A stretch of 56,310 nucleotides of DNA from a virus, in the IMG/VR virus record IMGVR_UViG_3300022562_001240; one strand, given 5' to 3'. The notes beneath the pieces are model-generated. The model was not told where the DNA came from. It worked only from the letters and a program-made list of their open reading frames with translations, and ran no database searches. The position numbers and the translations under genes were made by a program. Positions 13,488 through 55,713 of this stretch are shown here, piece after piece. Every line of letters begins with the position of its first letter. The stretch's first letter is position 1.

Positions 13488-13515
13488 GCCCGGTAGTGGA
13501 ATTCCACTACCGGGC
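13488..13515 (-). terminator. rho-independent terminator after the 685-aa gene
   Basis: Perfect palindrome GCCCGGTAGTGG-AATT-CCACTACCGGGC. On the minus strand it is followed by CUUUUUCUUUUGG. Confidence 0.6.
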
Positions 13516-13549
13516 CATTCAATCAGGAGTAATGTCAGATCGTGAGACG

Positions 13550-23955: not shown

Positions 23956-23968
23956 CTTCTAACTTGAG

Positions 23969-29839: not shown

Positions 29840-31249
29840 TTAAGCTGCATCCGCATGTGGGATCGGCTGCAAGCTGTGTCGAATCTTCATCTGCTTACCG
29901 CCACGAGCCGGGCTCAAGAAACGACTGAATCTCAAGTCGTTGATGATTGGCTCCACATCATGCAATCGCAGGCAGTAAGCCACCAGTGAACCGCAAGCCG
30001 AACCACGGCCCGGACCCACGGCTTCTGAGCCATCGCCGAACCCAACAATGCTGGGGCCGACATGGCGAGCTTCATCTGTCATCTGTTTCTGAATCAGGAA
30101 GTAGCTGGAGAAGCCCTTCTCACAGATCAGGTCGTACTCTTCCCGGATGCGGGATGAGTATTCCTTGGTGGCTGGACAACCTCGGGCCTTGAAGCCTCGC
30201 AGGGTCTCTTGCCATAGAAGGTCATCGGCATCTGGAATCTTCGGGAGCTTGATGTCCCTGTCGATCTCAACGCCCTTTGCTTTCTCACAGATGGCGATGG
30301 TGTTTGCTTTGGCTTGTTTGAAGATCTCGTAGTCGATGATGTCTTTGTACTTCAACTCCCACATGGCGTTGAGTTCGTCTTCTGACTTCAGCCACAGATT
30401 GGTGTCCTGAAGCTCAAAGAGATCATCGGCTTGACCGGAATCGATCATGGCCTGCACTTCTTGAATCGTGCGTTTGTTTTGCTGCATCAGCATGAGTCGC
30501 TGATTGTGACTGTGCTCTTTCTTGATCATCGGGAGACCGTACTTCTCGTGTGCCCGAATGAGGAAGGCGTTGTACGGCCCCTGCATCTTCCAGTCGAGCA
30601 TCATCATTTCAAGGTAGAAGTTGTCTCGACCGAGCATGTCGATGTAGTATTCCAACATTTGGAATCCCGCCTCATCGCCGCCCTCAAAGAAGGCTGTGGC
30701 TATTTCGCTGATGCCACAACCACTGGTGAAAATGATGCCTTCCTTGTGTTCTCGGAGAGCATCATGGTTGATTCGAGGGCGATAGTAGTATCCGTGAATC
30801 CACGCCCACGACGACAACCGAACGAGGTTTTGGTAGCCGATGTTGTTATAGGCAATAGCGAGCAGATGACATGATTTGCGGAAGATCTTCTGCTCTGGTG
30901 TTTGGGCTTTCGTCTCGGCATTGGGATCGCCAAGACTCTTGTAGAACTCAGCCGTATCAGAACGAGTGTTGGATTTGGGCTGCATCCGATTGACATACAA
31001 CTCGCAACCGAACAGCGGGTACAAGTTGTGCTTCTCTGCTTGTTCGATCTGCTGGGGAACTGCGCCCATAACCCCGTGATCGGTAATGCAGAGATACTTC
31101 TGGTTGATCTCCTTCATCCGCTGGGCATACTCCCACACCATGGCAAAGCCATCGAGAAGAGAGAAATCCGAGTGTCGGTGAAGATGCTCAAAGCCCATAA
31201 TCGGATGGTGCATTACTCGTCGCCTTCCTTGGTTCCGTTTTGTTGCCAC
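29840..31249 (-). CDS. dnaE: DNA polymerase III alpha subunit (DnaE-type), N-terminal fragment: PHP domain, thumb and start of the palm
   Basis: 469 aa. FEHLHRHSDFSLLDG and ITDHGVM (PHP motifs), then GPGRGSACGSLVAYCL. It ends at ...DLRFSRFLSPARGG, the position just before the catalytic PDxDxDF that opens the second fragment. Confidence 0.85.
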   Translation of the reverse strand: MATKRNQGRRRVMHHPIMGFEHLHRHSDFSLLDGFAMVWEYAQRMKEINQKYLCITDHGVMGAVPQQIEQAEKHNLYPLFGCELYVNRMQPKSNTRSDTAEFYKSLGDPNAETKAQTPEQKIFRKSCHLLAIAYNNIGYQNLVRLSSWAWIHGYYYRPRINHDALREHKEGIIFTSGCGISEIATAFFEGGDEAGFQMLEYYIDMLGRDNFYLEMMMLDWKMQGPYNAFLIRAHEKYGLPMIKKEHSHNQRLMLMQQNKRTIQEVQAMIDSGQADDLFELQDTNLWLKSEDELNAMWELKYKDIIDYEIFKQAKANTIAICEKAKGVEIDRDIKLPKIPDADDLLWQETLRGFKARGCPATKEYSSRIREEYDLICEKGFSSYFLIQKQMTDEARHVGPSIVGFGDGSEAVGPGRGSACGSLVAYCLRLHDVEPIINDLRFSRFLSPARGGKQMKIRHSLQPIPHADAA

Positions 31250-31975: not shown

Positions 31976-32659
31976 CTACTCGGTGCTCCTTAAAGAATCA
32001 AGGTCAGGATAATCGCTGCTTCCCAGAATCCCATCTGCCAAACCATAAAAAACGGCTTCTTCGGCTGACATGTACCAATCGACCTCATCTTTAAGTTTGC
32101 GGTCAAAAAATTTGTATGCCGTATCGTAAGTGGCCGTCTTCTTCCTCTTAAAGAATTCTGCTGTTTCTGAGGAAATGGCTTTTTCGGCAAAGATCTGCAA
32201 CATACGCTTGCAGGCCCGCTCTTGGAACTCGGCTTCGTTTTTCAGAGCGTAGGGATGCACCATTGAGCCTCCCGAGTATCCGTGGTGCATCAAGAAGTGG
32301 CAGTCTGGCATCATGATTCTGAGGTCTGCCGCTTGGAAGATGATGCCGCTCATAGAAGATGTCTGGGAGTATCCCAACATTGTGATCTGGCTGACTGCAT
32401 ACTCGATAGAATTGAAAACCGCCATGCCATTGTCCCAGCACCCACCGGCAGAGTGGAGATGGACCAAAATGGGTTTGTTGGGCGACTGATCGAGCAAATG
32501 CAAATTCTTAATAAAAGTCGTGGCTTGCCGGTAATCGACTCCCGGTTCTGACTCGTCGTCCTTGACATAGTAGCTGTGAAGGTAGATTTCCCTTCGATTG
32601 AGATTCACCTGATGATTGTGGATGTCATAAAGAACTTGATCCTTGGACTGACGGGCCAT
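31976..32659 (-). CDS. ClpP-family serine protease (possible prohead / maturation protease)
   Basis: ILVHLHSAGGCWDNGMAVFNSI (cf. ClpP INSPGGSVTAGMAIYD), catalytic Ser in GYSQTSSMSG, His in FLMHHG, and C-terminal AEEAVFYGLADGIL (cf. EAVEYGLVD). Confidence 0.65.
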   Translation of the reverse strand: MARQSKDQVLYDIHNHQVNLNRREIYLHSYYVKDDESEPGVDYRQATTFIKNLHLLDQSPNKPILVHLHSAGGCWDNGMAVFNSIEYAVSQITMLGYSQTSSMSGIIFQAADLRIMMPDCHFLMHHGYSGGSMVHPYALKNEAEFQERACKRMLQIFAEKAISSETAEFFKRKKTATYDTAYKFFDRKLKDEVDWYMSAEEAVFYGLADGILGSSDYPDLDSLRSTE

Positions 32660-32738
32660 TTTTCAGCCTCCTCTTGAGTATTCACTAGGCGGACGACGTA
32701 TTATAAGAAATTCGTCGCCAAACCTACATACTTATGAT

Positions 32739-33212
32739 ATGAACTTCAAGACTTGGATTGAGAACGAAGCCAGTTTAGGCTCTGGAACCCCAGAAATGGG
32801 TGCGATGCCCATGGTTAATAGGGGGAGCGAAACCCCTGCGTCCGATGCGGTTAAGCAAACTGGCCTCCAACCGCAAGTTGATGCCAAAGAGCTTAAGACA
32901 AAATCTCATAAAGAACAAGATGCAATGCTCGCCATTGACTCAGAAATCGAGCACATGGACATGCAAATCCCTGCCGGGGACGATTCTGAGACTCCCAAAC
33001 TGAACCAGTTCAAACAGCTTTGGGACGCTCTGAAAACAGCTTGGGAAGACATCAAGATGAGCGACAATACGCCCGGCGCAGAAGAGGGTGGTCTCGGCAC
33101 CAACATGGGCGACCCGAAGTATCTGGCGATGATGCAGCAGCACCCGAATATGGTCCCCGCAAGCGGCCAAGGTCAGGGACCACATGGTCCGGGCACTTTC
33201 GGTCAGCAGTGA
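32739..33212 (+). CDS. member of the N-terminal-motif family (MNFKTWIENEASLG...); Gly/Gln/Pro/Met-rich tail
   Basis: N-terminus MNFKTWIENE. C-terminus ...YLAMMQQHPNMVPASGQGQGPHGPGTFGQQ. Confidence 0.5.
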   Translation: MNFKTWIENEASLGSGTPEMGAMPMVNRGSETPASDAVKQTGLQPQVDAKELKTKSHKEQDAMLAIDSEIEHMDMQIPAGDDSETPKLNQFKQLWDALKTAWEDIKMSDNTPGAEEGGLGTNMGDPKYLAMMQQHPNMVPASGQGQGPHGPGTFGQQ

Positions 33213-33538
33213 ACTTCTGGGAGAATCTGATCCAGATCCCACTTGCCGTTGACTTTCAATTTACGGAAGTCGAAAGTCACAGAAACAACATGGTCAGTGA
33301 TGATCATGTGATGTTGTTCCTGTTGCCAGATAATCGAGCCGTTTCTGTCAAGAATCATGCCGCCGCAAACTCTGGCGTTTAGGCCCTCCACATCCCATGT
33401 GACGGTTGGGGCCAGAGGCTTCTCGGTGTTTGGGATCAATACCCAAAGACCTTCGGAGTCTTGATCGAACAAAGCCACCTTGCATCCCTGCAACAGCTTC
33501 TTCGCCGCTTTGAAATCCTTCAGCCAAGGATTGATCAT
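33203..33538 (-). CDS. hypothetical protein (111 aa)
   Basis: ORF on the dominant strand. Confidence 0.4.
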   Translation of the reverse strand: MINPWLKDFKAAKKLLQGCKVALFDQDSEGLWVLIPNTEKPLAPTVTWDVEGLNARVCGGMILDRNGSIIWQQEQHHMIITDHVVSVTFDFRKLKVNGKWDLDQILPEVHC

Positions 33539-33540
33539 CC

Positions 33541-33861
33541 TTAGTCTCCCATGATCAGCGATCCGAGATCATCGTCGATGCCAGCAGGCTTGACGTATCC
33601 GGTCGCTTCGAGTTTCTTTTGTGTTCGATAGGCATTCCGAAGACTCATACAACAATCTTCGGCACGATCCCATCCTGCCGTCTTCCAGACATCTTTGAGT
33701 GGGCCGACGTTCTGCCAGCCCTTCTCTGTGAGGTATTCAGCCATCACTTTCTCTTCGGCCTGACGAGCCTCTCGCTTCTTTTCCTTTTGCTTCTCTCGAC
33801 GGCGGGTCTTAGAAGCAGGTTCGTTGGCTCGCTTGGCACGTTGCTTTTTGGTTAGTGTCAT
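33541..33861 (-). CDS. hypothetical protein with a basic N-terminus (106 aa)
   Basis: Lys/Arg-rich N-terminus; overlaps the spoVR stop by 4 nt. Confidence 0.4.
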   Translation of the reverse strand: MTLTKKQRAKRANEPASKTRRREKQKEKKREARQAEEKVMAEYLTEKGWQNVGPLKDVWKTAGWDRAEDCCMSLRNAYRTQKKLEATGYVKPAGIDDDLGSLIMGD

Positions 33862-35459
33862 TTCAGGAAATCCTTCTCATATTGTTCTCTGGACATGATG
33901 TGGACATCACTATCCATGTTCGGACCATCGCAGACCAAGACGTATTCTTCCCCGTCAAGGTTCTGAGATCCCAGAACAACCACATTCTGCCAGATCATGT
34001 GAATTGAAGTGAGAACCTCTGTGGCGTACTTGTGGTACAGCGGTCGTCCATCAGCGTAGTGCTGCATGAAGAACCAGCCTTTGCCCAAGTGGTTCGGGTC
34101 GGTCAACCTGATGTCAGGCAAACCGCCATTACAGTAGCGTTGGAGCATCTGTTTCTTGACTTCCTTGAAATCACGAGACGTGATCTTCCACTCGCCCGTT
34201 GACATGCGGCGGTAGGTGTAATACTGCATCTTCTCGGCGAACTCTGGAGTGAAGAATTCGTTGATCAAGGTGTAGTCGTTGTAATACTTCCTGACTTCGA
34301 AGACCTTCTCCATGCCGAGCCCAAGTTTCTTATCCCACTTGGCCTTCTCCCGCATGTTGGTGCATTCTTCCCATTCCTTGCCGAACTTGCCCTTGTTCCA
34401 TCGATCTTCGATGTCCAAGAGAAGCTCGAAGCCCAGCTTGTATGGGTTCTGACTCCACTGACCTCCCAAGACTCGCATCTTGTGTTCGGCATAGTGCCAG
34501 ATACCAGCCGCTTCATCGTCCTGTCCGAGTGAGGCAAGGCCCTCCCGACAGAGTAGGTGGTAATCGACGAAACTGGCCCAACCTTCATTGATCATCTTCG
34601 TTTGTCGCTGAGGTTGGAAGTACATGGACTCATCATAGAGCATCGAGATGATGTCTTGCTGCCACGGCTTGAGTGGAGCATTATTCTTCAAGAATCCCAT
34701 GATGTCTCGATCAGCACGACCGAACAGGCCAAGGAATTCCGAAGCTTCTTTCTTCTCAATTCTCTCGTGTTCCTTCTCGATGTACGAGTCGGGGTTGACC
34801 CATTCGTCCATGTAGTCATGAGTGGATTTCAAACGTCTGGGAAAATGGTATTTTCTTTCATCCCTGACATTCTTGTTTTCAATCTTCTTTCGCTTCCATG
34901 CCTTCTGAGGATCAATGAGCGTTTCGATTCGCATCACATGGTCGATGAACTCTGTGACACGCTCGCCGCCCCAACGCTTCATGTACTGACGAATTCGAGT
35001 GCTGTGATTCGCCAGCTTGTTCATCATGTTTTCGTCAGTCGGCCCAAAGAAAATGTTGTTCTTGAAGAAGTCGTTGTGGCCGATGGCGTGACAGATAACG
35101 TCCACGTTGTCTACCAACGTGTTCGAGTCCATGCAGTAGATGTAACATGGATTGGTGTTGATCACCATTTCCGAGATACGGTACTGGTTGTATTCGTAAC
35201 CACGACTCATTTCCTCATATTCCATTCCCCACTTCCAGTGTGGGTATCGGACAGGGAAACCGCCGTAGCTGGCAAGCTCAGCCATTTCGTCGTAGCGGAC
35301 AAATTCAACGATGATGGGATAGTAGTCCAACCCCATATCCCTGCAAGCCTTCTCCATCTGAGGAAGCAGTTCCTCCACTTCCTTGTGGATCTTCAGACCG
35401 GGAATGTTGTTGTCACCAACCAGAATTGGTGTCCCGCTCATCATGTTAGATTTTGACAT
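33858..35459 (-). CDS. spoVR: SpoVR-family protein (YcgB-like)
   Basis: 533 aa. ...YPHWKWGMEYEE...NTNPCYIYCMDSNTLVDNVDVICHAIGHNDFFKNN... matches the SpoVR core. Confidence 0.8.
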   Translation of the reverse strand: MSKSNMMSGTPILVGDNNIPGLKIHKEVEELLPQMEKACRDMGLDYYPIIVEFVRYDEMAELASYGGFPVRYPHWKWGMEYEEMSRGYEYNQYRISEMVINTNPCYIYCMDSNTLVDNVDVICHAIGHNDFFKNNIFFGPTDENMMNKLANHSTRIRQYMKRWGGERVTEFIDHVMRIETLIDPQKAWKRKKIENKNVRDERKYHFPRRLKSTHDYMDEWVNPDSYIEKEHERIEKKEASEFLGLFGRADRDIMGFLKNNAPLKPWQQDIISMLYDESMYFQPQRQTKMINEGWASFVDYHLLCREGLASLGQDDEAAGIWHYAEHKMRVLGGQWSQNPYKLGFELLLDIEDRWNKGKFGKEWEECTNMREKAKWDKKLGLGMEKVFEVRKYYNDYTLINEFFTPEFAEKMQYYTYRRMSTGEWKITSRDFKEVKKQMLQRYCNGGLPDIRLTDPNHLGKGWFFMQHYADGRPLYHKYATEVLTSIHMIWQNVVVLGSQNLDGEEYVLVCDGPNMDSDVHIMSREQYEKDFLK

Positions 35460-36454
35460 TACTCGGTTCTCCTCCAGATATCATCCACATCATACGAGAT
35501 ATCTGTAATTAACTCAAGCTCTTCCCGCACTCTTCTTATAGGTTCCGACCAATCTCCTTCGGTCGATTGCCAGAAGAGTTTAACCGTGTCGTACCACATG
35601 GTTGTTTTAGAACGATCCCACAAAGGATTATCGTCGGATTTCATCAATCCAAAAGTTGGTTTGTTCATGGTGCCTGCCAAATGAAGGACAGATGAGTCTG
35701 TCGCAATGACCGCATCCATGGCGTCGATCAAAATTGCCACGTCGTTGAAATCGTATGTTGATGGCATCAACATTGATTCGGTGTTGGGCAAGGTGTAAAT
35801 GTTCCATCCCGATTCTTTAAGGACGGCCATTTGTTCCTCGGGGATTTGTTTGACGTGCAAACCACAAGCGGGCCGATTGGGCTGTATTGCCGCCTCGCCG
35901 TGAGGCAGAATCTCTGGCTGCCAAGGAACTTTGGTCTTCAGAATGACCGATCTGTCGGCGGGATAGTAGTGATCCAACTTGAGGCCACTCAACAGAGCCG
36001 GGATGCACATGATGTTGGTGTGGTAATCGCAAAGGACATGCTGATTGGTGAACTCATCCACGAACCAAACATCTTCCATCAATTTCTTTAAGGCTTCGTA
36101 GGCCGAGTAGCAATTCAGCACGATGCGACATTCCCATTCCCGCTTCAAAGCGGCGAGATATCTAAAGAAATTGATGGTGTTGCCGATGTTGAAGTCCGTG
36201 AACACTTCAATGGACGATCCACGCAGGGACTCCCCCCGCCAGTTGCGGCCAAAGTGTTTGGAAAGGTCTGGACGTGATGCGCCCAGTGTGTCTGAAACAA
36301 TCAGGCTGTAGAGTTCGCCGATGAGTTCGTGACTGGGATCTAATTTGCGGATAACTTCCAACAACTTGACGGCTTTATCGGGCAAGCCGATCCAGTAGTA
36401 GTTGTTGACAGTCGCCAGACCTTGATCAAGATACTGTTTGGAGTCCCGTGCCAT
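35459..36454 (-). CDS. GT9-like glycosyltransferase (heptosyltransferase family), paralog C
   Basis: VIATDSSVLHLAGTMNKPTFGL matches the GT9 D-SG-MHLA-A-G-P motif better than paralogs A and B do. Confidence 0.5.
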   Translation of the reverse strand: MARDSKQYLDQGLATVNNYYWIGLPDKAVKLLEVIRKLDPSHELIGELYSLIVSDTLGASRPDLSKHFGRNWRGESLRGSSIEVFTDFNIGNTINFFRYLAALKREWECRIVLNCYSAYEALKKLMEDVWFVDEFTNQHVLCDYHTNIMCIPALLSGLKLDHYYPADRSVILKTKVPWQPEILPHGEAAIQPNRPACGLHVKQIPEEQMAVLKESGWNIYTLPNTESMLMPSTYDFNDVAILIDAMDAVIATDSSVLHLAGTMNKPTFGLMKSDDNPLWDRSKTTMWYDTVKLFWQSTEGDWSEPIRRVREELELITDISYDVDDIWRRTE

Positions 36455-37289
36455 GAATGCTGTCCCTCAACTCTCGAATTTCCTGATGCGTCGGATCGTC
36501 GCTTTCATCGAGATTGACAAGGAACTCGTCGGACACTTCTGGCCTTCCGCCCTTGGGATAGCAGAAAATGTTCAACGAATTGCCTGCATTCAAGACATCC
36601 ACCTTGTGATACTTGAAGTTGTCTGGATTGTAGACAGGAGTTTCATGCAACTCCCAGTCATAACCCACATGCTCCACGAATCTCAAAATGTCTTCCCTGT
36701 TGTCGGCAAAGTTCACATACAACAGAGGGGTGGACCTATCGATGGTGCGACGGCAACCATTCAGTACAGAAAGCTCCATGCCCTGCACTGACACCTTAAT
36801 CAACTTGGGCTTCGCCAAGTTGACATCATCGATGGCAATTGATGCTACCGGATTATCACATTTACGTCCATCTCGGTCCTTGGCATTCAACAATGTCGCC
36901 AAGCTGATTTGTGATAGATCGACTTCACCATTGATGTCAACCGATGGGAAGTAACAGACGCCTTTGCTGGAATCTGTCACCGAACGGTTGAATGCTTGGA
37001 TGTTGGTGATCTGGTTGAGAGCGATGTTGCCGCACAACATGAAGTACAGGAACGTGTGAGCCTCAATTGCCAAGACGTAACCCTCTGAGGTAACGTGCTT
37101 CGCCAAAGGAATCGTGATCGATCCAATGTTGGCCCCAACATCAACGACCACATCACCCTTGTCAGTCAGCTTCTTCAAGAATTCTACCTTGAAAGAATTG
37201 ACTTCTCCGTAGGTGTCCAGAGAACGACCTACCAATTGATCGTTCTCTAAGAACATCATGTCTCCATACTTCGTGCTGCTGACTTTCAT
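36426..37289 (-). CDS. FkbM-family methyltransferase, copy 1
   Basis: VVDVGANIGSITIPLA plus the family-typical downstream architecture. Paralog of 52872-53705. Confidence 0.65.
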   Translation of the reverse strand: MKVSSTKYGDMMFLENDQLVGRSLDTYGEVNSFKVEFLKKLTDKGDVVVDVGANIGSITIPLAKHVTSEGYVLAIEAHTFLYFMLCGNIALNQITNIQAFNRSVTDSSKGVCYFPSVDINGEVDLSQISLATLLNAKDRDGRKCDNPVASIAIDDVNLAKPKLIKVSVQGMELSVLNGCRRTIDRSTPLLYVNFADNREDILRFVEHVGYDWELHETPVYNPDNFKYHKVDVLNAGNSLNIFCYPKGGRPEVSDEFLVNLDESDDPTHQEIRELRDSIHGTGLQTVS

Positions 37290-38530
37290 GCTGCTGCCTC
37301 TCTCTTATCGTTTTCTTTGCCCAAGATCTTACGGATGGCTTCGATGATCTGCTCGTTGCGATCTTCTTCGCTGAGATTGGGGGCATAACCCCAGTTCCCG
37401 AATCCGAAGTTCCCATCATCGTTATCCGATTCATCGGGGCCGACATTGGCCGTCTCGATATAAGAAGAGTCCAACTTTCCGCCTTTTAGGGCGTTGTCGA
37501 GGTGTTGTTTCACACTATCTTCGTATCTCCAAGAACAAACCTGCGTCATGCCCAACAGATTAACCTTGCTGGGACCGAGTTCTTCTTTGATGATCTTGAT
37601 CATCCGGCTGTTGTCGTCGCCCCAGTTGTCACCATCTGAGAAGTAGAAGATGTAGACGTTGTACTTCTCTGGCGGATATCTGTTTTCCAACTGATCCGCA
37701 ATGGCCCGGAACGCCGACGAACACATTGTTCCACCACCATAACGATAGGTGTAGAACGCCTCTTCGTTGACTTCCTGTGCTCTGGTGTCGTGGACAAAGT
37801 AGCAACGATCCACCTTGTCATAGAATTTTCTGATCCAGCAGTCGATCCACCAACTCATGTCGCTGACAATATCGCAGCGATAGTCGTCCATCGACGCCGA
37901 GCAGTCTCGGGCGAAGAAGATGACAGCATTCGAGGAAGGAATCTTGATCTGTTTGTACTGTCGATATCTGAAGTCGTTGTTGATGGGCGTCAGCAATCGA
38001 ACTGGCACCTTGCAGCCCGGCACCCACTGGAGGTTCTCCAGTTCGCCGGTCATCGACAATCGCTTCAGTGCTTCCTTCATCGTTCGACGAGGATGGCGCA
38101 ACGCTTGCAAACCGACCCGAGAGATATCGTTGTACTTGATCTTGATCTCTTCGTAGGTTTCATTGGGCTTGGGCCTCATGCGAGGCAACTTCAGTTCGTC
38201 CTGCATGAACCGCAGAACGTCATCCATATCGATAGTGATCTGGATGCCTTCACCGGGATCTTCCCCAGCTTTGTTGCCACCCTTGCCCGGTTGTGGGTCT
38301 CGCCCAACAACGTCGCCTTCTTTTCCCGGCCCACGACCGACACCTTCCCCGTTGCTTCCAAACACGAAGCGAGGAATCTCGATCTGCGGGATAGAGATCG
38401 TCATCTTGCCGCCCTTGGGCCGCTGACGAACGATGGACCCCGACTTGATCAGTCTTTTCAATTCACGTCGGGTGCGTCCAGAGATCACATCTCTGAACTT
38501 CTTATGATCTTCTTGGATTCTCTTTGGCAT
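37286..38530 (-). CDS. yhbH: YhbH/YeaH-family protein (DUF444, vWA-like)
   Basis: N-terminal FRDVISGRTRRELKRLIKSG...ISIPQIEIPRFVFG, then a Gly-rich segment, then DCSASMDD and FSDGDNWGDD. Confidence 0.75.
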   Translation of the reverse strand: MPKRIQEDHKKFRDVISGRTRRELKRLIKSGSIVRQRPKGGKMTISIPQIEIPRFVFGSNGEGVGRGPGKEGDVVGRDPQPGKGGNKAGEDPGEGIQITIDMDDVLRFMQDELKLPRMRPKPNETYEEIKIKYNDISRVGLQALRHPRRTMKEALKRLSMTGELENLQWVPGCKVPVRLLTPINNDFRYRQYKQIKIPSSNAVIFFARDCSASMDDYRCDIVSDMSWWIDCWIRKFYDKVDRCYFVHDTRAQEVNEEAFYTYRYGGGTMCSSAFRAIADQLENRYPPEKYNVYIFYFSDGDNWGDDNSRMIKIIKEELGPSKVNLLGMTQVCSWRYEDSVKQHLDNALKGGKLDSSYIETANVGPDESDNDDGNFGFGNWGYAPNLSEEDRNEQIIEAIRKILGKENDKREAAA

Positions 38531-38610
38531 GATGCTCCCCTTGTGTAAGAAAAGAGGGCGATAGCGGTAGAGTAACGATCAACCACCACTACCGCCCCCA
38601 ACGTCCGTCA

Positions 38611-40695
38611 TTACTCGGAGACATCGCCTCTGGCAAAGATGCTGCTCACATAATCGAGCACATCAGTAGCCGACTGCTGGTTGTATCCGCACTGCTTAAT
38701 CAATCGAGTCTTGATGGCATCGATCTTTTCTTGCAGATCGGGGTCCAACTCGGCAGCTTCTTTTGTCAAAGCCGACAACTTGATCGTGTCTTTGACATCT
38801 TCAAAGACCTTGGCTTCAAGAGCCCGCTTCAACTCAGGATTGCTGTCCCAGCGGAACTTTTTGTCCCGAGAAGCCAGCGTGCCGATAAAGGCGGCGAGCG
38901 AACGTCGGAAGTCGTCACAACCCTGTTCGGGGATGCCGTTCTTCTCTTCAATGCTACGCATCAGTCGCTCGTCGGGGTCCATGAGGTTGCCCGTAATCGG
39001 GTTCTCCATCTTCTCGTCATTGACGTAGGCGATCACGTTGTCAACGTATTTGTTGCACAGTCGTTCAATGGCCTTCTCATCGGCGACGAGAGCACGTTGG
39101 ACCTCGTTTTTCAGGATTTCGTCGAGTTCCTTGATTGCCAATTCGACACAGAACTCATACTTCTTCCTGTCCTCCACCTTGGTAATCAGCGACGAGTGAC
39201 CCAAACCTTCCTTGATTTCGCTGAGCACATGGAACACGTTCACATAATGCTTGCGGCGAGCCAATTGGTTCGAGATCTTGTCCTGCACATATCGTGCAGA
39301 CACGCCACCGATCATACCTTCATCTGGGAACTTGTCCCGAAGCTCCTTCACGGTATCTTCGGTCCAGCCCGGAAGCTGACGGCCATCATAAAGTTTGGCC
39401 TTGTCCCGCAGATCGAGTTTCCCCTCACCGTCATCGTGTAAACGAGTCAGAATGGCGAAGAAAGCAGCGATCTCCAAAGTATGTGGCATGATGTGTTGCT
39501 TGACTTTTCCGGGACCATACAGGTGTTCCAGAATCTTCTGCTCATCCGACCAGCGAAGCAGGTACGGCACATCCACCTTGACGGTTCGGTCACGAAGAGC
39601 TTCCATGAACTGGTTGTTCTTGAGCTTTTCGTACTCGGGGTTGTTCGTGTGAGCAATGATCAACTCATCGATCACAATCTGAGGGAACTTCTTCGGCTTG
39701 ATCTGGTGCTCTTGAGACGCTCCCAGAAGATCGTAGAGAAATGCGTTGTCGAGCTTCAACATTTCGATGAATTCACAGATGCCTCGGTTGGCAACTTGGA
39801 ATTCGCCGTCGAAGTCGAAAGCACGAGGATCTGAGTCGGCCCCGAAGTGGCCGATCTTGCGATAGTTCATATCGCCGGTGAGTTCCGTGCTGTCCTGATT
39901 CTTCTCGTCCTTGGGCTGGAATGTTCCGATGCCCACACGATCCGTTTCAGAGTGACATCTGCGGACCACCACGATGTGGTTGTCGATGACCTTCTGCCAA
40001 TCCCCATCATAGGTCTTGAGCAGGTGGTTCAAGAACAGCTTGCAGCGGGGATTGATCTCTCCCTCACAGATCAGCTTGTAGAGACTGTCCTTGTCGTCAT
40101 CACTCGCCATGTCTGTGAACGTGGCGTTGAGATCCTTCAAGAACTCCTGCCGCATGGGAATCGGCATCAGCTTCAAAGGATTTTCGTTGAGAGCCGCATC
40201 GCAGGTGTCATTCAGGTAGATCGCATTCTGCCCTTCGAAGGGAAGATTGACCCACTTGTAAGTGTACCATGCACCAGCATTGGTGCGGCTGTAGCGTTCC
40301 AGACCTCTCTTCAAGAGGCGGCAGATGGTGGATTTCGACGAACCCACCGGACCATGCAGCAAGAGCACACGCTTCTCGGTTCCATAAGAACCGGCTGCAC
40401 CGTGAATGAAATCGACAAGACCCTGAAGAGTCTTCTCTTCCAATCCGAAGATCGGAAGGGTGTCGTCGTCGAAGAAGTGGTATCTGGTGTGTGTCTTTCG
40501 ATAACGCTCGAAAGTGCTGGTGCCCTTTTCCATGATCATGTCATAGACATATTGGAAAGCGTTACGGGCCAGCGTTGGCCGCTTCATGACCAAGTTCAGG
40601 TAGTCGCCATACGACATTTCTTCGTTCAAGGCGAGAAACTGTTCTCGATCATAAAGTTCAGCGTACTTGCTTAAGAAAGTAGTTGTGTTCTCCAT
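38611..40695 (-). CDS. prkA: PrkA-family serine protein kinase (YeaG-like, AAA-type N-domain)
   Basis: 694 aa. Walker A LLLHGPVGSSKSTI and PrkA-like organisation throughout. Confidence 0.8.
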   Translation of the reverse strand: MENTTTFLSKYAELYDREQFLALNEEMSYGDYLNLVMKRPTLARNAFQYVYDMIMEKGTSTFERYRKTHTRYHFFDDDTLPIFGLEEKTLQGLVDFIHGAAGSYGTEKRVLLLHGPVGSSKSTICRLLKRGLERYSRTNAGAWYTYKWVNLPFEGQNAIYLNDTCDAALNENPLKLMPIPMRQEFLKDLNATFTDMASDDDKDSLYKLICEGEINPRCKLFLNHLLKTYDGDWQKVIDNHIVVVRRCHSETDRVGIGTFQPKDEKNQDSTELTGDMNYRKIGHFGADSDPRAFDFDGEFQVANRGICEFIEMLKLDNAFLYDLLGASQEHQIKPKKFPQIVIDELIIAHTNNPEYEKLKNNQFMEALRDRTVKVDVPYLLRWSDEQKILEHLYGPGKVKQHIMPHTLEIAAFFAILTRLHDDGEGKLDLRDKAKLYDGRQLPGWTEDTVKELRDKFPDEGMIGGVSARYVQDKISNQLARRKHYVNVFHVLSEIKEGLGHSSLITKVEDRKKYEFCVELAIKELDEILKNEVQRALVADEKAIERLCNKYVDNVIAYVNDEKMENPITGNLMDPDERLMRSIEEKNGIPEQGCDDFRRSLAAFIGTLASRDKKFRWDSNPELKRALEAKVFEDVKDTIKLSALTKEAAELDPDLQEKIDAIKTRLIKQCGYNQQSATDVLDYVSSIFARGDVSE

Positions 40696-40802
40696 GAAAA
40701 ACCCCTTATATCATGTGACCGATGCAAGGAGTCTATCAGATGGTTGCAGTTGTTACAAGAGGTCTTCTGCGAAAATCTTTAAGATGGAGAGAAAATCGAT
40801 AT

Positions 40803-41060
40803 TTAAGAAATCGACTTCAAAACAGAAGGCACAGTCATTGGTCTGTTGGGTCCGAGGCCCGGACCAGCAGGACGTGCGGGCTTCGTTGCTTTTGGCCCAG
40901 CTTTCATCATGTTTCTGATGGCATCGCCTCGACCCATACCAAATGGTGGTTTCACATCTTTGATCATCAGCTTGAAGATGTTCTTTTCGCCACCAGCTTT
41001 TCCGACTGGGCCGTAGAGACCATGAAGTTCTTCGTTCTGTAAGAATTCCTTAAACCTCAT
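40803..41060 (-). CDS. member of the N-terminal-motif family (MRFKEFLQNEELHG...); Pro/Gly/Lys-rich tail
   Basis: GAGGATGA ribosome-binding site. Start overlaps the previous stop in ATGA. Confidence 0.45.
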   Translation of the reverse strand: MRFKEFLQNEELHGLYGPVGKAGGEKNIFKLMIKDVKPPFGMGRGDAIRNMMKAGPKATKPARPAGPGLGPNRPMTVPSVLKSIS

Positions 41061-41428
41061 GACTTTTTCATCCTCTTCAACATCATCTTCTTCATGCCGA
41101 ACATCTTCGGTTTCGGAATCTTCAAACCTTGAATGGGGGAATCGAGAGACATCTTGAAAGCGACGTTGCCAGCATTGGTCGCACCACCAATCTTCGGCGG
41201 AACAATCTTATCCATGCCCCAGCCCACATCCTTCAAGAATGTTTTGTTCAATGAAGATGGGTTCCCAGAAAGATCCATCCAGTTTGTTTGACGGTCGGAG
41301 AACTTGGGTGACTGTTGAAGAAATTGCGAAGACTTCTCCGTCGCCTGACTCGTTTGAGTGGCTTGATTATCACGGGTTCCGTCAGAACCCACTTCGATCT
41401 CATTGTACAGCCATGCCTTAAATCTCAT
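41057..41428 (-). CDS. member of the N-terminal-motif family (MRFKAWLYNEIEVG...); Met/Lys-rich tail
   Basis: Start placed at the ATG at 41428 by analogy with the other family members. The longer track ORF begins at a GTG at 41491. Confidence 0.4.
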   Translation of the reverse strand: MRFKAWLYNEIEVGSDGTRDNQATQTSQATEKSSQFLQQSPKFSDRQTNWMDLSGNPSSLNKTFLKDVGWGMDKIVPPKIGGATNAGNVAFKMSLDSPIQGLKIPKPKMFGMKKMMLKRMKKS

Positions 41429-41445
41429 GCAATTATCTATGAGAC

Positions 41446-41724
41446 CTACTCCCACTTCTCCACACCGTCTTCCCAATAGTGCAAAATCCACTTTCCGCTA
41501 GTGGAGAAGTATTTCCGGTCGATCACGATCTGCCCATCATGAACTCTTCGATGGCAATTAGAACATGTGACTACAGTGTTGTAGTCTGTATATTCGCCGC
41601 CCTCTTCGCCCGGAACAATGCGGTGGCAATCCAACAAGGCGTAGTCGTCAATATCGCAGAAGTAGCACTTTCCTTCGAGACGCTTCTTAGACTTCTTATC
41701 AATAAGTTTTTTCGGCCTTGCCAT
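41446..41724 (-). CDS. HNH endonuclease
   Basis: CYFCD...LDCHRIVPGEEGGEY...NTVVTCSNCHRRVH is an HNH / zinc-finger nuclease motif. Confidence 0.6.
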   Translation of the reverse strand: MARPKKLIDKKSKKRLEGKCYFCDIDDYALLDCHRIVPGEEGGEYTDYNTVVTCSNCHRRVHDGQIVIDRKYFSTSGKWILHYWEDGVEKWE

Positions 41725-41768
41725 ATAACCTCCTCTTGCATAGATATGGTAACGAAAAGGAGGTTTCT

Positions 41769-41945
41769 ATGCGAGCACTATCTGCTTTGCTCCTCGGCCT
41801 CGCCCTGTGTTTCTCAGTGGGCTGCTCTTCTTCTGACAAGTGTTGCGACGATGGTTGCCACTGCCAAAAGGACGGTAAGTGTTGCTGTGAGAACGGCGAA
41901 TGCAAAGAGGGCTGCGATTGCGTCAACTGCGATTGCAAGAAATAA
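41769..41945 (+). CDS. metallothionein-like Cys-rich lipoprotein (58 aa)
   Basis: AAAGGAGG ribosome-binding site 7 nt upstream of the ATG at 41769. Signal/lipobox MRALSALLLGLALCFSVGC, then CCDDGCHCQKDGKCCCENGECKEGCDCVNCDCKK (14 Cys in 35 residues). Confidence 0.55.
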   Translation: MRALSALLLGLALCFSVGCSSSDKCCDDGCHCQKDGKCCCENGECKEGCDCVNCDCKK

Positions 41946-41952
41946 CCACGAA

Positions 41953-41984
41953 GAAAAGCCGCCAGAAATGGCGGCTTTTTTCAT
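41953..41984. terminator. bidirectional rho-independent terminator between convergent genes
   Basis: AAAAGCCGCC-AGAAAT-GGCGGCTTTTTT: a GC stem with U/A tracts on both sides. Confidence 0.6.
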
Positions 41985-43351
41985 TACTTAAGGAACCCAG
42001 TTGTGCTCAACCCATCCATCAAAGGAGCACACAAAACCTCCGGGACAATATCCGCCCCGACGATATCCGACTTCTTGTAGTCCGCTCCCTTTACCAGCAC
42101 GTCTGGCCGGATCTCCTTAATAATCTCCAAAGGTGTGTCCTCGTCGAAAGATACGACGAAATCGACCATCTCCAGAGCCGCCATGACCTTCATTCGTTGG
42201 TCCAATGGCTTCAGAGGCCGCTCAGGGCCTTTCAGACGCTTCACAGAATCGTCCGAGTTCAATGCCACGACCAGCTTGTCTCCTTGGCTCTTAGCGAACC
42301 TGAGCGTCTCCAGATGGCCTTCGTGGAGGATGTCGAAGCAACCGTTGGTAAAGACCAGCTTGAAATCTCGGCTGGCGAGATCAAGCCCGTTTTCGACCAA
42401 GCCCCGGTGGGCCATCTCGGCTGGGACAATGGGCCGGTTCATCTTGTTCTGGACGTAGACGGCTCCAGCCGTCCATGCGATCTCTGCCGCCTCTGGGACC
42501 GAGAATCCGTGCCCAATCGCCATCGCAAAAGTTGCACAGAAACAATCGCCAGCCCCAATCACACTCTCTACCTCCACGGTTCGAGTGGGGTTAAAGCAGA
42601 AGAACTCGTCGTGCCAGACTCCCGCCACCTTCTCGCCGCCGAACGTAATCACAACGCCTTCACACTCGGTTTCGTTCTGCAAATGTTTGGCCTGTTCTCG
42701 CCATGTGCTGCGACCAGTCAGATCTGCGGCCTCTTTGGCGTTTGGCTTCAAAATCGTGCAACCTCGCCATTTGCTCAATGGCCCATTCTTTGGATCAACG
42801 ATGGTTGTGACATCATGATAGAAATCGAGGATGCTGTGTTCCTCGCTGGCGAAGAAACCTTTGTTATAGTCTGACAGAATGGCGACATCTGGCTTGGACG
42901 ACTTAGCGATCACGCTCTCAAGATGTTCTGTGACAAAATCAAGCAGATATTCGTCGAGGCCACAGTTGGGTGATTCGATATCGTGTCGCACGACTTGGAC
43001 GCCGCCATCGAGGAAACGTCGTTTGATTGGGAGGCTTGCTTCGATACCACTGAAAGGGGCACAGGTCCATGACAAGCCATGTTCATCAAAAACCCTTGCT
43101 GCTTTGTCATCATAGAAACAAAACAGCAAGGGATCGACATTGAAGTGTTTGAATTGGTAAGCGACATTCGCTGCGCCGCCCGGCTTCCGCACACGCTGGG
43201 AATGCGGGGACCACATGATCGGCATGGGAAACTCGGGACTGATGCGATTGACCTTCACTTCATAGTATTCGTCGATCATTGCATCGCCGAGCACATGAAT
43301 CTTAAGATTCTGGCTCCTGTTCTTTTGTAGAAAGGTCTGGATGTGACTCAT
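41984..43351 (-). CDS. hldE: bifunctional D-glycero-beta-D-manno-heptose-7-phosphate kinase / heptose-1-phosphate adenylyltransferase
   Basis: 455 aa. N-terminal pfkB kinase (KPGGAANVA, GAGDCFCA). C-terminal cytidylyltransferase (TNGCFDILHEGH, DYKKSDIVG). Collinear with E. coli HldE. Confidence 0.85.
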   Translation of the reverse strand: MSHIQTFLQKNRSQNLKIHVLGDAMIDEYYEVKVNRISPEFPMPIMWSPHSQRVRKPGGAANVAYQFKHFNVDPLLFCFYDDKAARVFDEHGLSWTCAPFSGIEASLPIKRRFLDGGVQVVRHDIESPNCGLDEYLLDFVTEHLESVIAKSSKPDVAILSDYNKGFFASEEHSILDFYHDVTTIVDPKNGPLSKWRGCTILKPNAKEAADLTGRSTWREQAKHLQNETECEGVVITFGGEKVAGVWHDEFFCFNPTRTVEVESVIGAGDCFCATFAMAIGHGFSVPEAAEIAWTAGAVYVQNKMNRPIVPAEMAHRGLVENGLDLASRDFKLVFTNGCFDILHEGHLETLRFAKSQGDKLVVALNSDDSVKRLKGPERPLKPLDQRMKVMAALEMVDFVVSFDEDTPLEIIKEIRPDVLVKGADYKKSDIVGADIVPEVLCAPLMDGLSTTGFLK

Positions 43352-43568
43352 TCTCCTCCTTCGAGCCCTTCCACCAATTCCATACCGGGATGAATAGCTG
43401 AACGGCTACCCAGCCGATAACACCTTGTAGAGCAGCTTTGAATGCGAACCATCCGAATGCACCAACGGCGGCGGTGGTCACAGGATCAAGGAGATCCTTC
43501 TGCTCATGGTTTTGGGCAGAGACTTGTACGTTTTGGTCTGCTGCGGGTTTGTTAAGCTTTCTTGCCAT
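43302..43568 (-). CDS. membrane protein (88 aa; one TM helix and a Trp-rich segment)
   Basis: AVGAFGWFAFKAALQGVIGWVAVQLFIPVWNWW hydrophobic segment. Confidence 0.4.
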   Translation of the reverse strand: MARKLNKPAADQNVQVSAQNHEQKDLLDPVTTAAVGAFGWFAFKAALQGVIGWVAVQLFIPVWNWWKGSKEENESHPDLSTKEQEPES

Positions 43569-43635
43569 AGAACACCTCCGCAGTATTTATGGCTGATAAC
43601 CCGCAGTATCCTATGAGAGTGCCAAAACGAAAAAA

Positions 43636-45007: not shown

Positions 45008-45225
45008 CAGTCAGTTCCTCTTCTGAAGATCAAGCTTGCCACCCATCCCAGAATCATGCCAACCAGCAATGACAGAGGCGCAGCAAGATACAACCACACA
45101 ACAACATATGCCCCGCCAATTGACGGGTCTTGTTCTGCGGCAGCCCCGCCAGCATTTTGCAGCCATATCCAAGAGCCAAGCAGGCCCAACAGACCACCGC
45201 AAACAACAAACAGAAACTCTCTCAT
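45007..45225 (-). CDS. small membrane protein (2 TM helices)
   Basis: Two hydrophobic helices. Sits between folA and thyA, overlapping each by 1-4 nt. Confidence 0.4.
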   Translation of the reverse strand: MREFLFVVCGGLLGLLGSWIWLQNAGGAAAEQDPSIGGAYVVVWLYLAAPLSLLVGMILGWVASLIFRRGTD

Positions 45226-51844: not shown

Positions 51845-51873
51845 ACTTGTATGTACGGCTCATGAGAACCTTT

Positions 51874-55591: not shown

Positions 55592-55713
55592 GTTTGATCC
55601 TCCATGATCTTTAGCCTGACAAAACAGCCAACACAACAACGATAGAAAACCAGATGGCAATCATGCGTAAGATTCCCATGATTACCATCCTTTTCGTGAT
55701 GTTGAGGTTCTCG

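Follow-up and report, generated by a model that had tools for sequence, protein, structure and literature searches.

An intact PrkA-YhbH-SpoVR triad on a probable huge phage genome, interrupted by lineage-specific glycosyltransferase and methyltransferase genes

Does a viral stretch of DNA that carries prkA, yhbH and spoVR together with a glycosyltransferase and a methyltransferase gene encode one five-gene system, or a bacterial module with unrelated passengers, and what would a virus gain from it? The interest of the locus, in the 56,310-nt stretch analysed here (the window), is that a poorly understood bacterial stress module is found intact and clade-conserved on what is very probably a huge phage. 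The reading we favour, at a probability of roughly 0.55, is that the triad is a conserved auxiliary protein-remodelling module acting on host stress physiology, and that the two further genes are separate cargo.

All five open reading frames lie at the predicted positions on the minus strand, the three triad genes at full length (Table 1). The order PrkA-YhbH-SpoVR is as claimed, and is the same in an operon of the Thermomicrobium roseum megaplasmid and in phage RsoM2USA. The interruption between yhbH and spoVR by GT9-like and FkbM genes is real, and the overlaps, put at 1-29 nt in the original prediction, measure 4 nt (YhbH/FkbM), 29 nt (FkbM/GT9) and 1 nt (GT9/SpoVR); PrkA and YhbH are spaced by 80 nt and SpoVR overlaps the next small ORF by 4 nt. 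Scanning the stretch around the block for promoter- and terminator-like sites gave none beyond chance expectation. Overlaps, short gaps and this negative scan are consistent with the whole block being a single operon.

Table 1. Features of the triad locus and its surroundings, in window coordinates
Feature	Coordinates	Strand	Length	Assignment and context
HldE/RfaE-like bifunctional sugar kinase/nucleotidyltransferase	41984-43351	minus		Upstream of PrkA
PrkA-family AAA+ ATPase, long form	38611-40695	minus	694 aa	Pfam AAA_PrkA and PrkA_C
YhbH/YeaH (DUF444), vWA-type MIDAS motif	37286-38530	minus	414 aa	Pfam DUF444
FkbM-family SAM methyltransferase	36426-37289	minus	287 aa	TIGR01444 and Methyltransf_21; lineage-specific insertion
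GT9-fold heptosyltransferase-like enzyme	35459-36454	minus	331 aa	N-terminal helical domain; subclade-specific insertion
SpoVR/YcgB family	33858-35459	minus	533 aa	Pfam SpoVR
Two small ORFs	33203-33861	minus	106 aa, 111 aa	Adjoin SpoVR; 2-nt gap between them
ClpP-like serine protease	31976-32659	minus		Downstream of SpoVR; CLP_protease 2.4e-19 (Pfam)
FkbM paralogue	52872-53705			30% identity to the FkbM protein above

Profile searches support all three family assignments, with Pfam scores far over the gathering thresholds for AAA_PrkA (8.9e-74, 249 bits), PrkA_C (6.5e-71, 239 bits), DUF444 (3.3e-63, 215 bits) and SpoVR (6e-103, 345 bits). YhbH also matches the NCBIfam models NF003711 (3.6e-90) and TIGR02877 (5.5e-65), both under their equivalog cut-offs; the window proteins miss all NCBIfam equivalog cut-offs and are therefore not orthologues of the cellular proteins in the strict sense. 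PrkA keeps the Walker A lysine, the Walker B glutamates and the pore-loop aromatic: Walker A G115-S122, including K121, and E308/E311 are invariant, and K121, T273 and F284-G285 correspond to the experimentally probed K108, T217 and pore-loop Y228-G229 of the Bacillus protein. The MIDAS motif of YhbH, which is similar to the short spore_yhbH-like form, is likewise intact, with D209-x-S211-x-S213, T268 and D299 invariant relative to the E. coli, Thermus-phage and Ralstonia-phage copies. SpoVR has a zincin-like fold; it carries HAIGH (HAxGH), a putative non-canonical metal site without the catalytic Glu of HExxH. The nearest solved relative of PrkA is the 692-aa 'Serine protein kinase' of PDB entries 9xip, 9xiq and 9xir (E 1e-199, 52% identity), which shares the long form of the window protein and is placed outside the phage clade; a search of the PDB found no solved structure of YhbH or SpoVR. 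Other annotations also label the PrkA family 'serine protein kinase'.

The window triad is of the Bacillus/Thermomicrobium 'PrkA type' rather than the enterobacterial 'YeaG type'. Cellular PrkA of the former type is 42% identical to the window protein, which is ~60 aa longer by way of clade-specific insertions. The T. roseum megaplasmid has contiguous prkA-yhbH-spoVR of the same families, order and strand, while Bacillus links prkA to yhbH and has spoVR elsewhere; the window differs from both in being phage-borne and in the two extra genes between YhbH and SpoVR. E. coli encodes the same three Pfam families, split over two loci (yeaGH and ycgB), but its proteins are only 25-27% identical to those of the window, its YeaH has a long insertion absent from the phage YhbH, and the His-His spacing of its SpoVR-family protein, as in the proteobacterial form generally, differs from that of the window.

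The closest kin of the window triad form a clade made up of the deposited 595-kb phage LR756511 and IMG/VR and JGI contigs (L004-L023), whose triads are 52-62% identical to it, with metagenomic relatives reaching 90%. The PrkA tree recovers this clade as monophyletic. The arrangement HldE-like … PrkA-YhbH-SpoVR … ClpP is kept across 20 clade loci, and LR756511 and its relatives share the HldE-like, HNH, ClpP and split DnaE genes of the window's neighbourhood. The HldE-like gene (PfkB 1.8e-16, CTP_transf_like 8.2e-20; Pfam) lies upstream of PrkA in nearly all of these loci at 40-71% identity; the ClpP-like gene follows SpoVR in L005, L006, L011, L012, L014, L018 and L020, and L023 has a homologous-looking ORF there. 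Relative to the closest loci the triad (PrkA 77-79%, YhbH 66-77%, SpoVR 70-73%) is better conserved than anything around it, ahead of HldE and ClpP (56-71%) and of GT9 and the small neighbouring ORFs (31-55%). Phylogeny had been suggested as a check on joint acquisition, and the PrkA, YhbH and SpoVR distance matrices do co-diverge (Mantel r 0.92-0.97), as expected of genes inherited together. Judged from these comparisons, the triad has long been part of this phage clade, as an auxiliary module that is vertically inherited and strongly conserved. Some relatives carry inteins or different cargo at the triad junctions, and inteins also interrupt PrkA and SpoVR within invariant motifs.

That a virus carries the triad is not in itself new, since it is already present in phiYS40, RsoM2USA and four deposited phage genomes of 595-642 kb, and PHROGs holds families for each of the three proteins. 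In the cultured Ralstonia jumbo phage RsoM2USA, ORF30-ORF29-ORF28 are contiguous PrkA-DUF444-SpoVR genes in the window's order, but of the YeaG type, falling beside E. coli in the tree and 25-26% identical to the window proteins. The cultured Thermus phages phiYS40/TMA have all three families within genes 56-59 (annotated 'conserved bacterial protein', 'SpoVR' and 'serine kinase'), in the different order DUF444-SpoVR-hypothetical-PrkA, as shorter proteins 24-32% identical to those of the window and on a separate tree branch. The paper describing RsoM2USA gives SpoVR and PrkA separate entries in its replication and signal-transduction categories, leaving the triad unrecognised, and our literature search found no paper treating phage PrkA, YhbH and SpoVR as one unit. 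The triads of phiYS40, RsoM2USA and the Mahaphage genomes were independently acquired, and repeated acquisition argues for a selectable benefit.

What that benefit might be is suggested by the cellular triad, whose reported role is in nitrogen-starved or stressed bacteria. The genes yeaG, yeaH and ycgB show cofitness in six bacteria, evidence for joint action in cells; co-divergence of the phage genes does not by itself prove co-function, because it is expected of any co-inherited genes. The biochemistry of PrkA is contested, with reports of a kinase (YeaG) and of an ATP-dependent protease (B. subtilis), and with neither activity in pure B. anthracis PrkA; studies of cellular PrkA describe an AAA+ clade-III motor. 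We propose that PrkA, YhbH and SpoVR would work as a single ATP-driven machine that remodels or processes proteins, in which PrkA would supply the hexameric clade-III AAA+ motor, YhbH a vWA/MIDAS adaptor recruiting a partner or substrate, by analogy with other AAA+/vWA pairs, and SpoVR the effector or substrate-binding subunit with its zincin-like non-canonical metal site. The likeness to AAA+/vWA machines and to FtsH/YME1-type AAA+ zinc proteases is one of mechanism and not of sequence membership, HAIGH standing in SpoVR against the HExxH of the latter, and the triad complex is a prediction. Expressed by the phage, such a module may impose or override starvation and stress adaptation, so that a slow-growing host stays productive through a long infection. 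Manipulation of host starvation physiology, as originally predicted, stays a hypothesis. The alternative offered with it, a sporulation-like programme, is unlikely: many non-sporulating bacteria have the triad, and the phage encodes ADP-heptose and heptosyltransferase functions, which are typical of Gram-negative envelopes.

The strongest competitor, although we consider it unlikely, is that the triad serves phage morphogenesis or genome handling; phage proteins would then be the targets of an AAA+/vWA chaperone equipped with a processing subunit. Such pairs serve elsewhere as chaperones of assembly or maturation (MoxR-vWA, CbbQ/O, the I and D subunits of Mg-chelatase), a ClpP-like protease recurs as neighbour, and conservation as high as this is typical of core phage genes, not of accessory ones. 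In cells, however, the phenotypes of the triad concern starvation and stress, with no connection to particle assembly; the triad is set among genes of nucleotide metabolism, replication and translation, not structural genes; and independent acquisition by unrelated phages from different bacterial subfamilies better fits a host-directed auxiliary function.

Comparison with relatives shows that the glycosyltransferase and methyltransferase do not belong to the module. The Pfam match of the former to Glyco_transf_9 is confined to 45 residues (2.2e-6, 27.6 bits, cut-off 22), but its AlphaFold model (pLDDT 89) has only GT9 enzymes as top Foldseek matches in the PDB (TibC, WaaF, WaaC and 3tov; E 1e-5 to 1e-3), which strengthens the call. 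The latter matches TIGR01444 (3e-20, 73 bits against a cut-off of 37.7) and Pfam Methyltransf_21 (1.4e-8, 35.5 bits). A weak match of the FkbM protein to V. cholerae RfbT was also seen. GT9 occurs in 8 of 8 junction-covering loci with PrkA at 77-79% identity and in 0 of 11 deeper loci; in every locus where PrkA is 60-66% identical, only 1-288 nt separate YhbH from SpoVR and no gene lies between them, LR756511 and other deep members having an uninterrupted triad. FkbM was found only in L007, L010 and the window among the 20 clade loci compared. The distribution indicates that the pair is a later, lineage-specific insertion at the YhbH/SpoVR junction of one subclade, GT9 having entered that subclade and FkbM being present in only part of it.

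It is improbable, then, that GT9 and FkbM are coupled to the triad in a five-gene system, for example by heptosylating or methylating YhbH, SpoVR or their substrate. Stable retention of GT9 at the same position throughout the 77-79% subclade, with translational overlaps onto YhbH and SpoVR, leaves some room for such coupling, and its best structural match, TibC, is a protein-heptosylating enzyme. Against this, both genes are absent from all deeper clade members and from all other phage and cellular triads; unrelated cargo (a Dam-like methyltransferase, a Mom-like protein) occupies triad junctions in other relatives; FkbM has its paralogue elsewhere in the window; and GT9 copies among the eight loci share only 31-37% identity while their neighbours share 70-79%, a fast divergence typical of host-surface-directed cargo. 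As accessory cargo and no component of the triad machine, the two enzymes would most likely act on a host envelope glycan or a protein by heptosylation and O-methylation, the ADP-heptose being supplied, probably, by the phage's own HldE-like enzyme.

That the window is instead a piece of bacterial chromosome, from a small-genome or predatory organism, with the triad as the resident cellular copy, is very unlikely. The 56-kb window yielded no capsid, portal, terminase or other phage structural gene, which leaves relatives and gene content as the grounds for the phage assignment, and housekeeping-type genes are many (IF3, peptide deformylase, tmRNA, DnaE, ClpP, ThyA, GlpX, HldE). Huge phages, however, are reported to carry translation genes and tmRNAs; the DnaE here is divided between two genes far apart, and HNH genes or other homing endonucleases and inteins are frequent. 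The block is collinear with that of LR756511 (62/52/59% identity for PrkA/YhbH/SpoVR), where the nearby DnaE-C gene also finds its best match, so that synteny reaches past the triad; the same block is on 18 IMG/VR viral contigs, and related contigs cluster at 585-693 kb with none >1 Mb. Most neighbouring genes lack a Pfam match, with the share at about half among the scanned window ORFs and about three quarters among genes called around the L004 copy. A close copy occurs in 1 of 185,579 species genomes and is missing from the other 185,578; this single match, which favours a bacterial origin by its label, is a 546-kb contig of a Bacteriovoracaceae MAG and looks like a huge phage placed in the wrong bin. 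The original call of a phage-like genome thus holds up, and the window is very probably part of a huge phage genome of roughly the 0.6-0.7 Mb class.

A counter-defence or superinfection-exclusion device in place of a metabolic or stress modulator is just as doubtful: large phages accumulate such functions and ATP-dependent degradation of host factors fits known counter-defence logic, but the triad matches no PADLOC defence-system model, its neighbourhood is without defence-related genes, and the published studies consulted on the cellular triad report no role in phage immunity.

Downstream of SpoVR, the two small ORFs have no Pfam or PHROG match; the 106-aa one is weakly conserved among relatives (25-45% identity), and both are probably the tail of the SpoVR transcription unit.

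The ORF listing reproduces the five minus-strand ORFs of the original prediction (see table), and the overlaps between the inserted genes and their neighbours, which it had put at 1-29 nt, measure 4 nt (YhbH/FkbM), 29 nt (FkbM/GT9) and 1 nt (GT9/SpoVR), with a gap of 80 nt between PrkA and YhbH. The three triad families it had named also hold in Pfam profile searches, all above gathering scores: PrkA matches PF08298 (249.1 bits) and PF06798 (239.4 bits, cut-off 25 for both), YhbH matches PF04285 (214.6 bits, cut-off 27) and carries a vWA MIDAS motif, and SpoVR matches PF04293 (345.1 bits, cut-off 27), its SpoVR_C domain falling slightly under threshold (24.3 against 27.6). The methyltransferase belongs to the FkbM family by TIGR01444 (73.1 bits, cut-off 37.7) and PF05050 (35.5 bits, cut-off 22.7). 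The glycosyltransferase exceeds the PF01075 cut-off (27.6 against 22 bits) over 45 aa only, and this weak GT9 call was checked with an AlphaFold model built from 21 homologues (pLDDT 89), which has a GT9-like fold: its 28 best PDB matches in Foldseek are all GT9 enzymes (TM 0.4-0.5), among them the protein heptosyltransferase TibC, the LPS heptosyltransferases WaaF and WaaC, and a Veillonella GT9 enzyme.

Features of the window, followed by inserts at the PrkA-YhbH junction of three related loci (insert positions are those of the locus named)
Feature	Position	Strand	Details
IF3 (both domains)	2008-2544	-	1e-25 to 1e-30
Three-domain TPP enzyme, acetolactate-synthase-like	2558-4195	-	
dCMP deaminase	5290-5841	-	
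Peptide deformylase	9488-10003	-	1.6e-14
DHH/DHHA1 phosphoesterase	15638-16783	-	
DnaE (DNA polymerase III alpha), split, two ORFs	29840-31249 and 18204-21086	-	~8.7 kb apart
tmRNA	23966-24348	-	ARAGORN and Rfam RF00023, full length, 88.5 bits; predicted tag VETSTPLRMAA*
C92 permuted-papain amidase	25527-26198	-	
ClpP-like protease	31976-32659	-	present downstream of SpoVR in numerous loci of the clade, 36-68% identity
111-aa ORF			2 nt beyond the 106-aa ORF
106-aa ORF			overlaps SpoVR by 4 nt
SpoVR	33858-35459	-	533 aa; SpoVR 6.3e-103 (Pfam)
GT9-like	35459-36454	-	331 aa; Glyco_transf_9 2.2e-6, 45 residues only (Pfam)
FkbM	36426-37289	-	287 aa; Methyltransf_21 1.4e-8 (Pfam), TIGR01444 3e-20 (NCBIfam)
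YhbH	37286-38530	-	414 aa; DUF444 3.3e-63 (Pfam)
PrkA	38611-40695	-	694 aa; AAA_PrkA 8.9e-74, PrkA_C 6.5e-71 (Pfam)
HNH endonuclease	41446-41724	-	between HldE and PrkA; kept in most relatives, inverted in L006
Thymidylate synthase	45222-46088	-	
HNH endonuclease	49540-50235	+	matches 'head closure' and endonuclease PHROGs
Second FkbM-type methyltransferase neighbourhood	50765-53705	-	FkbM paralogue, then GlpX and vWA gene
vWA-domain protein	50765-51844	-	near second FkbM
GlpX fructose-1,6-bisphosphatase	51874-52875	-	5e-107
FkbM paralogue	52872-53705	-	30% identical to FkbM of the block
dNMP kinase	54905-55660	-	
L006 insert	12137-14392		Dam-type/D12-class N6-adenine DNA methyltransferase and two ORFs of no assigned family
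L007 insert	12166-13038		290-aa ORF of no assigned family
L023 (MAG contig) insert	12142-13800		552-aa protein, weak Mom-family match

The triad genes are all present on one strand in the order prkA, yhbH, spoVR, and are not contiguous in the window, where 1.83 kb containing FkbM and GT9 separates yhbH from spoVR. All three proteins miss the NCBIfam equivalog cut-offs, PrkA for enterobacterial YeaG (NF011999, 196.8 against 576 bits), YhbH for sporulation YhbH (TIGR02877, 219.9 against 467.95 bits) and also for the PRK05325 subfamilies (302.9 against 388 bits), and SpoVR for the E. coli type (NF008737, 165.8 against 679 bits), and we therefore treat them as divergent family members rather than strict orthologues. 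PrkA shares 25% identity with YeaG and groups in the tree with the Bacillus/Thermomicrobium type. The single operon originally proposed is plausible from the overlaps; a scan of 32600-43600 for sigma-70 promoters and intrinsic terminators gave counts at or below shuffled expectation; it is uninformative on operon boundaries, compatible with one transcription unit and no proof of it.

The window very probably derives from a huge phage (genome over 200 kb) of the LR756511-like clade, judged by its similarity, in collinear order, to one deposited phage genome and a set of viral contigs, in line with the phage-like genome first proposed. A DNA-level search with the block gave a single deposited match, LR756511 (an 'uncultured phage' of 595,163 bp), in which PrkA, YhbH and SpoVR are collinear and 62, 52 and 59% identical to those of the window, and the best phage match of the C-terminal DnaE piece lies ~5 kb from the SpoVR of the same genome. 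A scan of IMG/VR recovered the same block in 18 loci, and the matches of protein searches, at 56-100% identity, fall into well over a hundred clusters of 90% identity, on contigs that cluster at 585-693 kb; the layout is shared by a JGI contig of 686 kb (3300072492, Ga0642625_00006), about three quarters of whose local genes lack a Pfam match. That the window is instead a piece of bacterial origin has only a slim chance: among 185,579 bacterial and archaeal species, each represented by one genome, a single close copy was found. This copy (L023, CALFYV010000090.1, 546,147 bp) belongs to a MAG labelled 'uncultured Bacteriovoracaceae bacterium', has a phage-like layout, and carries PrkA, an insert, YhbH, SpoVR, ClpP and the DnaE N piece. 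Mis-binning of a huge phage into a bacterial MAG is the probable explanation; the MAG label could instead be a hint to the host.

No virion or packaging hallmark gene was found among the ~40 ORFs scanned in the window, which is part of a 238,888-bp JGI source contig, the sole 'head closure' PHROG match (the second HNH gene) overlapping endonuclease families, and about half of the larger ORFs have neither a Pfam nor a PHROG match. No tRNA was detected in the window. It does encode a tmRNA and IF3; tmRNAs and initiation factors have been documented in huge phages.

Alignment of the window proteins against all fetched loci by tblastn reveals a constant gene order, in which an HldE-like gene, often an HNH gene, and small ORFs precede PrkA, YhbH and SpoVR, followed by further small ORFs and often ClpP and the DnaE N piece. 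Identity to the closest loci is 77-79% for PrkA, 66-77% for YhbH and 70-73% for SpoVR, compared with 56-71% for HldE, 65-68% for ClpP, 52-76% for HNH and 25-67% for the small ORFs. The distance matrices of the three triad proteins across 20 clade loci are strongly correlated (r = 0.92-0.97, Mantel p ≤ 0.0005), and the clade is monophyletic in a neighbour-joining PrkA tree. Synteny, co-divergence and monophyly together indicate that the triad dates back to the clade ancestor and has since been passed down as one strongly constrained unit. The possibility that they are recent passenger DNA without function is rejected by clade-wide synteny, high conservation and intact motifs.

Inteins fall in the same conserved proteins. 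SpoVR of one related locus (L007, 16841-19768) is a single 975-aa ORF with LAGLIDADG and intein-splicing domains, with P0380 and P0386 being similar, and inteins are also found in many PrkAs of 1,000-1,120 aa (further intein-bearing proteins are P0082, P0100, P0122, P0123, P0125, P0126 and others); besides clade members, more distant PrkAs are affected. The SpoVR intein is inserted at N101|T102, within the invariant E-x-V-x-N-x-x-P motif, and the four PrkA sites (K265|N266, F299|Q300, K314|L315, H349|T350) are likewise at conserved positions, K314|L315 adjoining the Walker-B-like motif EFIEMLK and H349|T350 lying in an AHTN motif. Inteins typically occupy those positions of important proteins that are under the tightest constraint, and their location in invariant motifs thus fits the conservation data.

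The functional motifs of the triad proteins are retained. In PrkA the ATPase motifs are intact, with Walker A GPVGSSKS containing K121 and with E308 and E311 invariant; direct alignment with a Bacillus cereus-group PrkA equates K121 with Bacillus K108, T273 with the PrkC phosphosite T217, D275 with S219, and the pore-loop-1 pair F284-G285 with Y228-G229. The YhbH MIDAS is kept in full (D209-x-S211-x-S213, T268, D299, all invariant). Among the polar residues that stay invariant in SpoVR are H124, H128 and E292: one helix, placed after a small β-sheet, carries the invariant H124-x3-H128, and a later long helix carries the invariant N291-E292-G293, a layout that resembles the gluzincin arrangement. 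We regard this as a moderate-confidence lead, and as one of the new elements of this analysis, because the catalytic Glu of HExxH is absent from SpoVR (the motif reads H124-A-I-G-H128), the His spacing varies (proteobacterial forms have H-A-x-Y-G-H), and a Foldseek search with SpoVR returned no matches.

The placement of GT9 and FkbM between yhbH and spoVR stands as originally described, and comparison among loci gives it a polarity. YhbH and SpoVR are adjacent in all 11 loci whose PrkA is 60-66% identical to that of the window, including LR756511 and the MAG contig, while a GT9-like gene separates them in all 8 junction-covering loci at 77-79%, with FkbM added only in L007, L010 and the window. 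Read from these gene orders, the interruption is secondary and both genes are apparently separate cargo, unrelated to the triad and absent from the deeper loci. The PrkA-YhbH junction holds differing inserts in relatives (see table), indicating that triad junctions are permissive sites for accessory genes; they look like insertion hot spots. Orthologues of the GT9-like gene occur in L004-L010, L019 and L020. Its best metagenomic homologues share 36-48% identity with the gene, and the orthologues only 31-37% where PrkA is 77-79%; the gene diverges much faster than its neighbours, which suggests diversifying pressure of the kind seen in host-surface-directed genes. An HldE-like kinase/adenylyltransferase gene, conserved clade-wide, lies 5.5 kb upstream of GT9. 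ADP-heptose is the donor of GT9 enzymes, and the cis position of the HldE-like gene offers circumstantial grounds that its product would supply it. Based on the fast divergence and fold of GT9, a weak RfbT-like signal for FkbM in the Pfam search and the HldE-like gene in cis, we infer that GT9 and FkbM could act as a pair that adds heptose and O-methyl groups to a surface glycan of the host or to a protein, independently of the triad. Duplication of an FkbM-GT9 cassette was considered and rejected, as the FkbM paralogue adjoins GlpX and a vWA gene, with no GT9 paralogue beside it.

The PrkA/YeaG-YhbH/YeaH-SpoVR/YcgB module is widespread in bacteria, with starvation, stress and sporulation phenotypes and no agreed biochemistry, and AAA+/vWA pairs are known from MoxR-vWA, CbbQ/O and Mg-chelatase I/D. 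By analogy with these pairs, YhbH would be a vWA/MIDAS adaptor to PrkA, the putative AAA+ motor of a three-part machine, and a zincin-derived SpoVR would bind substrate or serve as the effector; in its phage setting, such a machine may act on host proteins and set how starved or stressed the cell is while a long infection runs. We place the descriptive part of this account at a probability of about 0.9, and hold its mechanistic part tentatively, at somewhat under even odds. Among cellular homologues, B. subtilis PrkA binds and hydrolyses ATP, reportedly degrades casein in an ATP-dependent manner, and requires K108 for ATPase activity and for sporulation; B. anthracis PrkA oligomerises with ATP, is placed by modelling among the clade-III AAA+ proteins, alongside YME1, and is needed both to sporulate and to tolerate osmotic stress. 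Reports of kinase and of ATP-dependent protease activity for PrkA conflict. Cofitness of yeaG, yeaH and ycgB is known in cells, where the phenotypes concern nitrogen and amino-acid use; acting together is known for cellular copies only, and the window clade shows co-divergence.

A stronger version, which we consider rather unlikely as a whole, would make the triad an 'anti-dormancy' machine, core to a worldwide clade of 0.6-0.7-Mb phages, maintained there by selection and captured independently by at least three other phage lineages. This split, FtsH-like device of three components, a clade-III AAA+ motor (PrkA), a vWA adaptor (YhbH) and a zincin-derived effector (SpoVR), would remodel or cleave specific host regulators such that starved hosts stay competent for long huge-phage replication. 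A role for the triad in phage assembly is improbable, and functional coupling of the triad with GT9 and FkbM very improbable given the uninterrupted YhbH-SpoVR pairs in the deeper loci. A counter-defence device is a highly improbable reading: PADLOC returned no match for PrkA, YhbH, SpoVR or GT9 and only a weak mad2 match for the methyltransferase, leaving a defence or anti-defence role without support.

Triads occur in other phages. The Ralstonia jumbo phage RsoM2USA has contiguous PrkA, DUF444 and SpoVR genes in the window order (Pfam 1e-132 to 1e-153), an order also found in Thermomicrobium, whereas in the Thermus phages phiYS40, TMA and YS40_Isch DUF444 and SpoVR come first and a hypothetical gene precedes PrkA; the annotations there read 'conserved bacterial protein', 'SpoVR' and 'serine kinase'. 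Distant triads (~25% identity) are present in phage genomes of 634, 636 and 642 kb, sizes that match Mahaphage genomes of Al-Shayeb et al. Partial sets consist of PrkA and a vWA protein in several Thermus phages and Enterobacter phage LAU1, and of a short YhbH-like vWA protein in Bacillus Bastille-like phages. All three proteins have families in PHROGs, which carry an unknown-function label. In the PrkA tree RsoM2USA groups with E. coli YeaG, phiYS40 lies near the base of the PrkA type, and the window clade is nearest to metagenomic proteins and to PDB entry 9xip; this separation implies at least three phage captures of the triad, and probably four. One nearest non-phage relative is in a MAG labelled Nanoarchaeia. 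Entries 9xip, 9xiq and 9xir ('Serine protein kinase', 692 aa, 30 chains) are 52% identical to the phage PrkA, and the best plasmid-borne relatives of 9xip are Thermomicrobium and Bacillus PrkA; no structure paper for 9xip was found in the searchable literature. In the same literature phage PrkA and SpoVR are mentioned in the RsoM2USA paper only, separately, with the phage triad as a unit appearing nowhere, and the main text of the huge-phage paper makes no mention of kinase or sporulation genes.

Since phage copies had been deposited earlier, the window triad is an unusually well-populated case of a known kind rather than a new kind, and the surprise originally attached to viral carriage was overstated. 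The proposed link to a sporulation-like programme is also unlikely: clade conservation with inteins, repeated capture and retained motifs indicate that the module gives a general, transferable benefit not tied to sporulation. New here are the clade-wide conservation of the triad, its several independent captures, the targeting by inteins, the polarity of the insertion and the SpoVR lead, with nothing categorically new. Labels such as 'sporulation protein' and 'serine kinase' on phage genes mask one three-gene unit, whose biochemistry has gone without explanation in bacteria for 30 years. RsoM2USA and phiYS40 are experimentally accessible carriers, and cultured phages could make this long-standing functional question testable, in the form of two hypotheses: that SpoVR is a zincin-derived subunit, and that PrkA, YhbH and SpoVR form an AAA+/vWA/effector machine. 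Were the 'anti-dormancy' reading true, cultured carriers and compact phage versions would be the first tractable route to the biochemistry of the module.

Downstream of the triad, motifs TSSMSG and LMHHG suggest that the ClpP-like product has retained its catalytic Ser and His; it may be a true ClpP, but also a prohead protease or a PrkA partner. The split DnaE is broken at position 98/100 of the Pfam DNA_pol3_alpha profile, the N piece holding the PHP domain and the C piece the remainder with the finger and HHH domains. By domain coordinates a split intein is unlikely, the N piece ending ~20 aa past its last Pfam match, which is too short. Relatives also carry a separate DnaE N piece of 459-473 aa, downstream of ClpP.
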